From positions 192,001 to 256,000 of the forward strand of contig CAVSGI010000010.1 in assembly GCA_963727445.1 (NCBI GenBank): a stretch of 64,000 bases of DNA, in the 5' to 3' direction. Made by a program: the position numbers and the translations under genes. This stretch comes from an uncultured delta proteobacterium. Its GTDB lineage: Bacteria; Myxococcota_A; Polyangia; Polyangiales; B10-G4. Below are positions 56,069-61,168 of this stretch, piece by piece (the first letter of the stretch is position 1; each line of letters starts with the position of its first letter). The notes under the pieces were generated by a model. That model saw only the letters and a list, made by a program, of their open reading frames with translations, was not told the origin of the DNA and did no database searches.

Positions 56069-57728
<1,660 letters not shown>

Positions 57729-57854
57729 CCCCCCGCGCTCTTGCTCGTTCTCGACGCAAGCCGTCTCGAGCCACCCAACGTCGCGCAGCGCCAGCGCCCG
57801 AACGCACGCGTCGAGAGTGAGCCGCGTCCCCCGAACATCCTCGGCGGGACGAGC

Positions 57855-58495
57855 GCGACATCACGAGAAGGGGCCGCGATGCGGTCGCAAGTCGAGGCGT
57901 TGCGTGCGACGCAGCGAGAAATGACCGCGGTGCGGTCACAAGTCGGGACGTCGCGTGCGACGCAGCGAGAAATGACCGCGGTGCGGTCACAAGTCGGCAC
58001 GTTGCGTGCGACATCGCCAGAAATGACCGCGATGCGGTCACAAGTCGGGACGTCGCGTGCGACATCGCCAGAAATGACCGCGATGCGGTCACAAGTCGGG
58101 ACGTTGCGTGCGACGCAGCGAGAAATGACCGCGATGCGGTCACAAGTCGGGACGTCGCGTGCGACGCAGCGAGAAATGACCGCGATGCGGTCGCAAGTCG
58201 GGACGTCGCGTGCGACGCAGCGAGAAATGACCGCGATGCGGTCACAAGTCGGGACGTTGCGTGCGACGCAGCGAGAAATGACCGCGATGCGGTCACAAGT
58301 CGGGACGTTGCGTGCGACATCGCGAGAAATGACCGCGATGCGGTCGCAAGTCGGGACGTCGCGTGCGACGCAGCGAGAAATGACCGCGATGCGGTCACAA
58401 GTCGGGACGTCGCGTGCGACGCAGCGAGAAATGACCGCGATGCGGTCACAAGTCGGGACGTCGCGTGCGACATCGCCAGAAATGACCGCGATGCG
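57855..58495 (+). repeat. Tandem array A: about 12.5 copies of a 51-bp palindromic (REP-like) unit
   Basis: Consensus GCGGTCACAAGTCGGGACGTCGCGTGCGACGCAGCGAGAAATGACCGCGAT; GAAATGACCGC recurs every 51 bp from 57918 to 58479; first unit degenerate. Confidence 0.97.
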
Positions 58496-58508
58496 AGGCG
58501 CCGCACCG

Positions 58509-59306
58509 TCACCATGTCGAGGCGGGCGCCCGAGCCGTGACACTGGCGGCCACGGCCTCCTCGAGCGCGATGCGGATGCGAAGCGCACGCAGCGCTTGAG
58601 GCGAGGCCGAACACGCGGCCAATCGCCGAGCGCTCCGCGGGGAGAGCGAAAGTGACCACGCGATCTCGGCGGTCGCGATTCCCAGCTGCCCCGCGAGCAC
58701 CGCGGCGGTGATCTTCGCTCCCATGACCGGGGCCTCTCTCCCGGAGAGCGGCGGGCCCGCCGCGAAGGCCGAGGACGCTGCCGCGGCGATCCGAGTAGGG
58801 CCCAAGGCGCGAAGCGCGGCGTCATCGAGAAGCGGGATGGACGGCGGCAGCCCCGCCGCTTCCAGCAGCGTCTCCGTCCGCAGGCGCGGCACGAGCTCGC
58901 GCACGCGCGGCGTGACGCCGGGAACGATCCGGGCTCCCACGAGATCCTGAAAGCACGATCCCGTCCAGAGCGCCGGATGGCCCGAGAGGCCGTGATGTTC
59001 GACCTGCCGCACCATGTAGGGGATCAGTCGCTTCAGGTGCTGCCGATCCCGCACCGGTTCGACGTGCGCGAGTCGAACATCGACCTGGGCGACCTTCTTC
59101 CACGCGAGGACCACCGACCGACCGACCCACGGGAAGCTCTCGCCATTGGCGAGCACCACCGTGTGCGCGTGATCATCGACGACGCAGAAGAGCACCACGC
59201 GCGCGCCGCTTCTTCCGAGTGCACGAACCGCCTGGCGCAGCGAGCGCTCATCTGGGAATGGGGGCAGACGACCGGCGGAGGTGAACGTCAGGTGGGCGCA
59301 TCGCAT
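58509..59306 (-). mobile_element. HUH/Y1 tyrosine transposase-like nuclease (RAYT/IS200-family-related) with C-terminal HTH
   Basis: N-terminal HLTF...R..PF.DE, HUH motif FCVVDDHAHTVV, candidate catalytic Tyr in RLIPYMVRQ, W-x-x-S motif (LWTGSC), C-terminal AEIAWSLSLSPRSARRL; flanked by palindromic repeats. Confidence 0.75.
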
Positions 59307-59398
59307 GCGGGCCTTATCGACTCGGAGCGGTCGCGGTTGCGCCGGGCGCGAGTGCGGCTCGGTTGCAACTCGGATCCCTGGTGAGCGCGGGCAGACCA

Positions 59399-60270
59399 GC
59401 GGTCACAACTCGGGTCGTCGGGGTCAACGCCGGCAGAAGTGACCGCCTCGCGGTCACAACTCGGGTCGTTGGCGTCAACGTGGGCAGAAGTGACCGCCCA
59501 GCGGTCACAACTCTCGTCGTCGGGGTCAACGCCGGCAGAAGTGACCGCCCAGCGGTCACAACTCGGGTCGTTGGCGCTAACGCCGGCAGAAGTGACCGCC
59601 CAGCGGTCACAACTCTCGTCGTTGCGGTCAACGCCGGCAGAAGTGACCGCCCAGCGGTCACAACTCGGGTCGTCGGGGTCAACGCCGGCAGAAGTGACCG
59701 CCCAGCGGTCACAACTCGGGTCGTCGGGGTCAACGCCGGCAGAAGTGACCGCCTCGCGGTCACAACTCTCGTCGTCGCGGTCAACGTGGGCAGAAGTGAC
59801 CGCCTCGCGGTCACAACTCGGGTCGTTGGCGCTAACGCCGGCAGAAGTGACCGCCCAGCGGTCACAACTCTCGTCGTTGCGGTCAACGCCGGCGGAAGTG
59901 ACCGCCCAGCGGTCACAACTCTCGTCGTCGGGGTCAACGCCGGCAGAAGTGACCGCCTCGCGGTCACAACTCTCGTCGGGGTCAACGCCGGCAGAAGTGA
60001 CCGCCCAGCGGTCACAACTCGGGTCGTCGGGGTCAACGCCGGCAGAAGTGACCGCCTCGCGGTCACAACTCTCGTCGTTGCGGTCAACGCGGGCAGAAGT
60101 GACCGCCCAGCGGTCACAACTCGGGTCGTTGGCGCTAACGCCGGCAGAAGTGACCGCCCAGCGGCCACAACTCTCGTCGTTGCGGTCAACGCCGGCGGAA
60201 GTGACCGCCCAGCGGTCACAACTCGGGTCGTCGGGGTCAACGCCGGCAGAAGTGACCGCCCAGCGGTCAC
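59399..60270 (+). repeat. Tandem array B: 17 copies plus a partial copy of a 51-bp palindromic (REP-like) unit
   Basis: Consensus GCGGTCACAACTCGGGTCGTCGGGGTCAACGCCGGCAGAAGTGACCGCCCA; one unit has a 3-bp deletion; degenerate copy at about 59357-59398. Confidence 0.97.
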
Positions 60271-60298
60271 ACCTCCGCCCGGTCGCCCTCAGGCCCAT

Positions 60299-60970: not shown

Positions 60971-61168
60971 TCGCGGCGACGCTAGTGCCTGGTCCAATGA
61001 TGTGGAAGGGGAGATCGCGACGGGCGTCGGTCACGTCGCAAGGAGGGAAACCGAAGGACGTGCAGCGCACATTCGAGGTTTCCCGACGCCGCGAGGCGGC
61101 CGACGAACGAGCGAGAACCCTTCTACGTCATTGGACCAGGCACCAGCAGTCTCCCTCCGAAACGCTTC

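Follow-up and report, generated by a model that had tools for sequence, protein, structure and literature searches.

Nucleases of the HUH/Y1 type are described with different motifs, domains and partner repeats. In the available sections of Quentin 2018 (PMC6006769), TnpA-Y1 subclass 2.1 has an HTH/DnaA_C tail, a Y-x3-NP motif and no REPs, and subclass 1.2 has a Y-x3-Q-x2-HH motif in proteins of ~148 aa that do not carry the HTH tail. The TIRYTs, according to text sections of Di Nocera 2013 (PMC3733652), carry GGGGWSAS repeats which form dimers and clusters, and RAYT group 1 is characterized by low flanking 16-mer counts in a part of Bertels 2017 (10.1101/119735). The TIRYT/TIRtron group, TnpA-Y1 subclass 2.1 and RAYT group 1 are probably the same group under three names. 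It is the largest RAYT group, and the automatic and manual searches reported in those sections of PMC6006769 saw no REP-like substrate beside it. The accessible part of Bertels and Rainey (10.1101/2021.07.10.451892) contains nothing further on arrays.

The nuclease gene and its flanking arrays

The locus considered here lies in a window of 64,000 nucleotides, the whole stretch of DNA analyzed, from an uncultured delta proteobacterium. A nuclease gene related to the group described above is located between two repeat arrays, A and B. The features are the following:

57830-57880, plus strand: degenerate leading unit of array A, with a recognizable right half
57881-58495, plus strand: array A, 12 complete 48-nt palindromic units at a 51-bp pitch (57881-58489), followed by 6 nt
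58509-59306, minus strand: gene of a RAYT/TIRYT-like HUH/Y1 nuclease of 265 aa, with an open frame and intact family motifs
58554-58805, minus strand: C-terminal helix-turn-helix domain (residues 168-251), DnaA domain IV-like by structure comparison
59016-59018, minus strand: putative catalytic Y97 in Y-x3-Q-x2-HH
59163-59171, minus strand: HUH motif H46-A47-H48
59399-60271, plus strand: array B, 17 units at a 51-bp pitch (59399-60259), followed by a spacer and a 9-nt left arm

In an alignment of 38 sequences, residues D44, H46 and H48 of the nuclease do not vary and Y97 hardly does; among 137 sequences, each of the four is conserved to 90% or more. Y97, whose catalytic role is putative, aligns with the tyrosine of a Y-x3-NP protein from the same genome. 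The predicted structure (pLDDT 95.6) resembles E. coli TnpA-REP over residues 1-152 (4er8: Z 11.6, rmsd 2.9, 132 aligned), which is also its top Foldseek match (E 4e-3). The tail, residues 168-251, resembles DnaA domain IV (3pvp: Z 9.9, rmsd 2.1, 84 aligned; 1j1v: Z 8.8, rmsd 2.2, 81 aligned). The homodimer prediction score of 0.01 says nothing for or against a dimer. The query alone gives no useful match in Pfam or NCBIfam scans, and profile searches of solved sequences return weak IS200/TnpA matches, with a best relevant E of 0.04. At the level of the family, with 137 members and a threshold of E<=0.1, the NCBIfam model REP_Tyr_transpos is matched by 61 (best 2.2e-7) and HTH_23 by 35. Two of the 41 other homologues found are named REP-mobilising transposase RayT by their source. 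The nuclease profile aligns end to end with the same-genome Y-x3-NP protein flanked by GGGGACG inverted repeats (E 2.3e-5, 226 columns). The nuclease can be placed as a derived relative of the TIRYTs (subclass 2.1). The genome holds two typical TIRYT-like genes with Y-x3-NP (C10:487608-488606 and C9:566827-567786), both flanked by GGGGACG inverted repeats, some of them duplicated in tandem, along with two other genes of the Y1 type (C10:985135, C9:168541).

The nuclease family forms 454 clusters at 50% identity (E<=1e-30; the sister branch possibly included) and, the sister branch included, occurs in 30 of the 301 genomes that were sampled within the phylum. Many related loci are recorded as Myxococcota or Deltaproteobacteria, others have other, unverified labels, and no relative occurs in the viral contigs searched. 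Near-identical pieces of the nuclease gene are present in contigs of two public runs. At the locus itself, no sigma-70-type promoter was found, terminator-like sites occur at chance level, and Rfam gives two chance matches far below the gathering scores.

Array A lies 13 bp past the stop codon of the nuclease gene, and array B, in the same orientation, begins 92 bp upstream of its start codon. Tandem Repeats Finder reports both as head-to-tail repeats of 51 bp, A at 57874-58495 (12.2 copies) and B at 59396-60275 (17.3 copies), although exact copy numbers in long arrays may be imprecise. Of the units of B, 16 are intact and one has a 3-nt deletion. The 26 full units of A and B align without gaps in 51 columns, and the two consensuses are identical at 37 of 51 positions, or at 38 if an 8:7 T/C column of B is taken as C; the gapless alignment and the homology claimed in the earlier note, with about 38 identities, are thus confirmed. 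Over the 48-nt unit, 38 positions are identical in direct orientation vs 30-32 flipped, which is a soft test for units that are themselves palindromic.

Next to array A, the iPGM gene (56069-57728) changes between several reading frames, with breaks near 57040, 57280 and 57500. Its orthologue in a second genome of the same genus (G001, 86% complete) is 80% identical with 11 gap openings; the frame breaks are probably consensus errors, or possibly mark a pseudogene. In G001, iPGM is followed by a different gene and nothing matches the nuclease or the arrays, so that no insertion boundary can be read. Neither an empty site nor a target signature was found in the two genomes. A separate element of 167 bp at 60981-61147, with 30-nt terminal inverted repeats and about 35 matches in the genome (at least 28 in G001), is MITE-like and unrelated to the arrays.

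Unit architecture and repeat families

The true repeat unit is an imperfect palindrome of 48 nt followed by a 3-nt spacer. Its parts (12-5-5-4-5-5-12) are a 12-nt arm, five variable nucleotides, a 5-nt inner block and a 4-nt center, after which the order is mirrored. The earlier note had read each unit as two hairpins, and the dyad symmetry is indeed there, but the register is different. The first unit of a three-unit array opens with a left arm and the last one closes with a right arm, so that hairpin 1 is the junction between units and not a part of one unit. The description of its stem as near-invariant holds, as it is 99.2% paired in the units of A and B around a freely varying 3-nt loop. 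Hairpin 2 pairs without any mismatch in 5 of 12 A units and in 5 of 16 intact B units, while 8 of the 16 contain a true C.A mismatch. The compensatory C-G to T-A change proposed for this stem does not stand. The 5′ base is C or T in a ratio of 7:4 in A and 7:8 in B, with the partner fixed in each array, and the covariation score of 0.083 (0.071 when shuffled) is reached by 137 of 500 shuffles. Among 19 array consensuses, the pair reads TA in 4, CG in 3, CA in 6 and TG in 6, and among 158 units it is Watson-Crick in 78, A.C in 41 and G.T in 39. The C/T choice varies independently of G/A, and the position, within a symmetric motif, is degenerate between the two pyrimidines.

These 19 arrays come from a profile scan of the genome, which also finds one degenerate single unit and gives no match on the reversed genome. 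Seven of them are trimers, some related through shared flanks. The similarity of A and B (38/48) is ordinary in this family, in which the mean of pairs is 35.6 and 23% of pairs are as high. A and B are thus ordinary family members rather than the distinct left and right ends suggested before, and homologous genes mostly carry arrays on one side only. Separate homogenization of each array, also proposed before, is upheld. In 134 units from the whole genome, the rate per site at which a unit departs from the consensus of its array is 0.014 for the outer arms, against 0.036 for stem 2 and 0.08-0.15 for the loops, the spacer and the middle segment, which makes the substitutions non-random; the expectation that stems vary less than loops is borne out, while covariation is missing at the pair that had been cited for it.

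A paralog of the nuclease at C27:412259, 43% identical, is flanked by its own repeat family with a period of 52 bp. This family has the same 48-nt layout with a 4-nt spacer, and forms 21 clusters, 7 of exactly three units, with no match on the reversed genome. In its 17 array consensuses, a set that left out C27:149071 and C12:179040, pair 18/31 is Watson-Crick in one and pair 4/45 in six. A third family of 48-nt units, at a 52/53-bp pitch, lies at C8:77948-78876, C9:695478, C10:635074 and C10:948738, and the matching gene is absent from the assembly. At C8:78131, one unit is chimeric between this third family and the 51-bp family, with the switch from one to the other in the inner loop.

Several dispersed arrays have common flanks or sit within another repeated element, which means that some of the copies may have been carried along as passengers. 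The arrays at C27:290395 and C6:406045, of 12 and 7 units, share a 400-bp flank at 99% identity, which indicates that a duplication took place recently and that the number of units changed afterwards. Several arrays are enclosed by inverted pairs of another repeat, ~300 bp long, whose end is a GC-rich palindrome (C12:177682-179564, C8:480321-481663, C4:22507-23832). Such bracketing makes passive carriage of arrays possible.

Trimers beside the nuclease family and their possible reading

The link between repeats and nuclease extends through the family. A direct-repeat scan of 72 loci detects repeats at a lag of 51/52 in 49 of 134 gene flanks vs 2 of 277 distant windows. After the addition of metagenome loci and dereplication at 90% protein identity (133/149 loci), a sequence-independent scan for three palindromic units finds them in 79 of 222 flanks vs 9 of 455 distant windows. 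The period is 51 in 61 of the 222 flanks and 52 in 10, and any other value from 48 to 60 occurs in at most 3. At the level of loci, 72 of 132 pass the trimer scan and 60 have no trimer at the threshold, and the layout recurs at 61 independent loci. Arrays lie on one side of the gene at 52 of 90 loci, on both sides at 7 and on neither at 31; at two-sided loci, the arrays are near-identical direct copies in 4 of 5.

The trimer is the rule for the number of units. When both ends are assembled, 38 of 55 closed arrays have exactly three units, and so do all 23 of the diverged ones, with a mean unit identity below 36/48, which cannot be collapsed assemblies owing to that divergence. The trimer scan itself requires three units, and 5 flanks with one weak unit were dropped before these counts, but dimers are found in just 2 of the 143 flanks left after the scan. 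The basic element is best described as a 150-bp trimer, in which six half-sites of alternating orientation are placed about 25.5 bp apart.

The geometry is constant, and the sequence is specific to the locus. The more alike two proteins are, the more alike are their repeats, a weak but significant correlation (Mantel rho 0.18, p 0.001, n=56). In a near-complete genome (G300), each of five nuclease genes has a distinct 51-bp array. Copies that are not accompanied by a gene are dispersed: of the four G300 families tested, two are dispersed and two local, one of the former with copies of ~150 bp at 7 further sites and the other as long arrays. A sister subfamily of the nuclease (15 loci sampled, L176-L190) is flanked by similar palindromic units with periods of 50-53, 63-64, 73 and 84, and 2 of the 15 pass the trimer score.

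The most probable explanation, held with a confidence somewhat above even, is that A and B are cognate repeats of the nuclease encoded between them. The six half-sites of a trimer would be read by several copies of the protein, after which the trimer would be nicked and spread, and the arrays would have expanded later. Several nuclease copies may read the half-sites by sequence in a phased array, whose pitch is just under five helical turns. The fold and this pitch suggest that reading occurs most likely through the DnaA-IV-like domain on double-stranded DNA. The conserved residues are consistent with a HUH domain that would then nick locally unwound or folded-back DNA and transfer strands. 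One dispersed family for each paralog suggests that trimers spread as non-autonomous elements of the REPIN type. The long arrays, A and B among them, would result from later local duplication of units, which homogenizes each array separately. The hairpins would follow from the dyad symmetry and may form transiently, with no particular hairpin as the selected object. Binding, cleavage and mobility of the repeats by the nuclease are predicted from sequence comparison and structure models.

The choice between sequence and structure depends on the pairing tests. When the register of 37 arrays with the 51-bp period is set by nothing but the outer arms, pairing reaches 0.69-0.77 at inner positions 18-21 (0.28 in shuffles) and 0.25-0.37 at positions 13-16, which equals the background; this test is free of detection bias, and 9 weak arrays and all 52-bp arrays were left out of it. 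In 25 diverged trimers, the left half pairs with its own right half at 0.79 in the outer and 0.73 in the inner part, across the junction at 0.74 and 0.69, and between units 1 and 3 at 0.81 and 0.78, even though detection favors pairing within a unit in this test (L043 was dropped). The equal pairing within and between units favors six phased, sequence-read half-sites over a specific hairpin, but it could also come from concerted evolution among half-sites. The conserved part is a bipartite half-site (positions 2-12 and 18-22) in six copies. Of the earlier proposal of selection on secondary structure, one part remains, as the dyad covaries strongly across loci; selection on a particular hairpin is not established, because any left half in the diverged trimers pairs equally well with any right half.

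The main alternative is the classical REP/IS200-type recognition, in which the enzyme binds folded single-stranded hairpins, either the junction hairpin or the inner 5-bp stem with its 4-nt loop, and selection acts on structure instead of sequence. It extends the reading of the earlier note and is rather unlikely. In its favor, all characterized TnpA-REP proteins work on REP hairpins in single-stranded form (PMC8266576). The inner positions 18-21 show all four pair types and are 86-96% paired in 28 dereplicated loci, and stems vary less than loops. Individual loci, with L029 as a clear case, have inner-stem changes on both strands in the middle unit, and the chimeric unit at C8:78131 and several array ends (about 5 arrays, by eye) break in the inner loop. 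Some trimers contain double changes within a unit, which speaks against the preferred reading: 22 of 53 doubly changed inner-stem cells still pair, vs 20 of 123 in the middle segment, in a count where the inner columns were part of the detection score. The observations against this alternative are that pairing within the unit or at the junction gains nothing over cross pairing, that the inner stem is mismatched in half of the intact B units, and that Watson-Crick pairing in the 52-bp family is limited to 1 of 17 array consensuses at pair 18/31 and to 6 at pair 4/45. Wobbles have no strand bias (G.T vs A.C on the gene strand: 44/34 outer, 14/19 inner), and a hairpin alone leaves the fixed 51/52 pitch and the number of exactly three units unexplained. 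The spacers are enriched in A/T (125/204 vs 66/204 in the sequence beside the trimers), and beyond this enrichment no cleavage motif was seen in them.

According to a further, improbable explanation, the trimer mainly serves a domesticated protein as a binding array with a regulatory (operator-like) or architectural (nucleoid-organizing) role, and is dispersed by other mobile elements and recombination instead of the nuclease. The DnaA-IV-like domain found by structure comparison would suit such a role, upstream trimers often end 0-30 bp from the gene start, and all 15 matches of the ~300-bp repeat lie within 600 bp of an array. The conservation of H46, H48 and Y97, the position of 27 of 66 arrays downstream of the gene and the dispersed family of each paralog, as in REP systems, speak against this explanation. 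The last explanation, a coding minisatellite of 17 codons or an assembly artefact, hardly deserves belief and is refuted for the family: 51 is divisible by 3, both arrays can be read through in several open frames and the neighboring iPGM gene has apparent frameshifts, but families with a 52-bp period exist, which excludes codon constraint, best-frame codon scores of A and B are -0.17 and -0.13 (genome median 0.43, 10th percentile -0.09) and do not exceed 0.20 in any of the 19 arrays, the units differ from one another in recurring variants, and the layout is shared by the 61 independent loci, so that the non-coding nature of the arrays proposed earlier is upheld.

Returning to cognate repeats read by sequence, a bolder and rather doubtful extension can be proposed. 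A distinct HUH/Y1 branch may use an origin-like platform of six phased half-sites, with cooperative loading through the DnaA-IV-like domain and HUH nicking within the trimer, which would mobilize or amplify it, each enzyme having its own sequence code. If true, many orthogonal enzyme-site pairs would be built on one invariant geometry, two of them in the genome of the window and five in G300.

Comparison with known systems

A CRISPR array needs unique spacers between its repeats, whereas in A and B the head-to-tail units are separated by 3 nt. The IS200/IS605 TnpA proteins (subclass 1.1) and subclass 1.2 share the DHxH and Y-x3-Q motifs with the nuclease, and Y-x3-Q-x2-HH is the signature of subclass 1.2 in the sections of PMC6006769 cited above. 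The length of 265 aa and the HTH tail differ from both, subclass 1.1 proteins having ~150 aa. Unlike in IS200/IS605, near-identical gene copies are absent (the two present are 43% identical), and A and B look like ordinary family members rather than distinct left and right ends. By sequence motif and modeled fold, the nuclease combines a subclass 2.1 tail with a subclass 1.2 motif.

The REPtron or REPIN-RAYT systems (E. coli TnpA-REP, PDB 4ER8; subclasses 2.2 and 2.5) provide the best structural match. They share one cognate repeat family per enzyme, intergenic dispersal and tandem amplification, and the 48-nt unit resembles a REPIN in being an inverted doublet. As in a REPtron, the repeat is dispersed extragenically, in 19 arrays with low codon scores. 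The differences are the extra DNA-binding domain of the nuclease, the fixed spacing and the near absence of monomers and dimers, and the 5′ GTAG/GTGG hairpin foot of REPtrons (subclasses 2.2, 2.4, 2.5, 2.7, 2.8) is not conserved in the aligned units.

The TIRYT/TIRtron systems share the Y1 core with a DnaA_C/HTH tail, few divergent copies per genome, the absence of GTAG REPs, and flanking repeats whose dispersed families occur as dimers or clusters. The array arm at this locus matches the TIRYT consensus GGGGWSAS at 7 of 8 positions, but the half-site profile of the family is only loosely similar to it. The nuclease differs by Y-x3-Q-x2-HH instead of Y-x3-NP. The TIRYT gene is bracketed by one inverted pair, whereas here trimers at a fixed 51/52-bp pitch lie usually on one side; A and B are in direct orientation rather than terminal inverted repeats, and arrays on both sides are limited to the 7 of 90 loci. 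The fixed geometry is absent from the text sections of the TIRYT/TIRtron description (PMC3733652), its figures and supplements aside, and no description of 51-bp or fixed 51/52-bp trimers occurs in the literature searched, which lay outside subscription journals, figures and supplements.

By analogy, the arrays and the nuclease seem to work like a REPIN/RAYT or TIRtron pair, but they lack defining features of REPtrons, TIRtrons and IS200. The trimer beside a transposase-derived nuclease suggests a layout not described before in an already known class of selfish DNA. In the largest RAYT group, where the searches cited above had seen no REP-like substrate, a derived branch now has a sharply defined candidate, in which the geometry of three units at 51/52 bp is constant and the sequence follows the protein. 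Two questions become directly testable, namely the reading of double-stranded sites by the tail and the movement by the enzymes of their own repeats, and the two paralogs in one genome provide a built-in specificity control.
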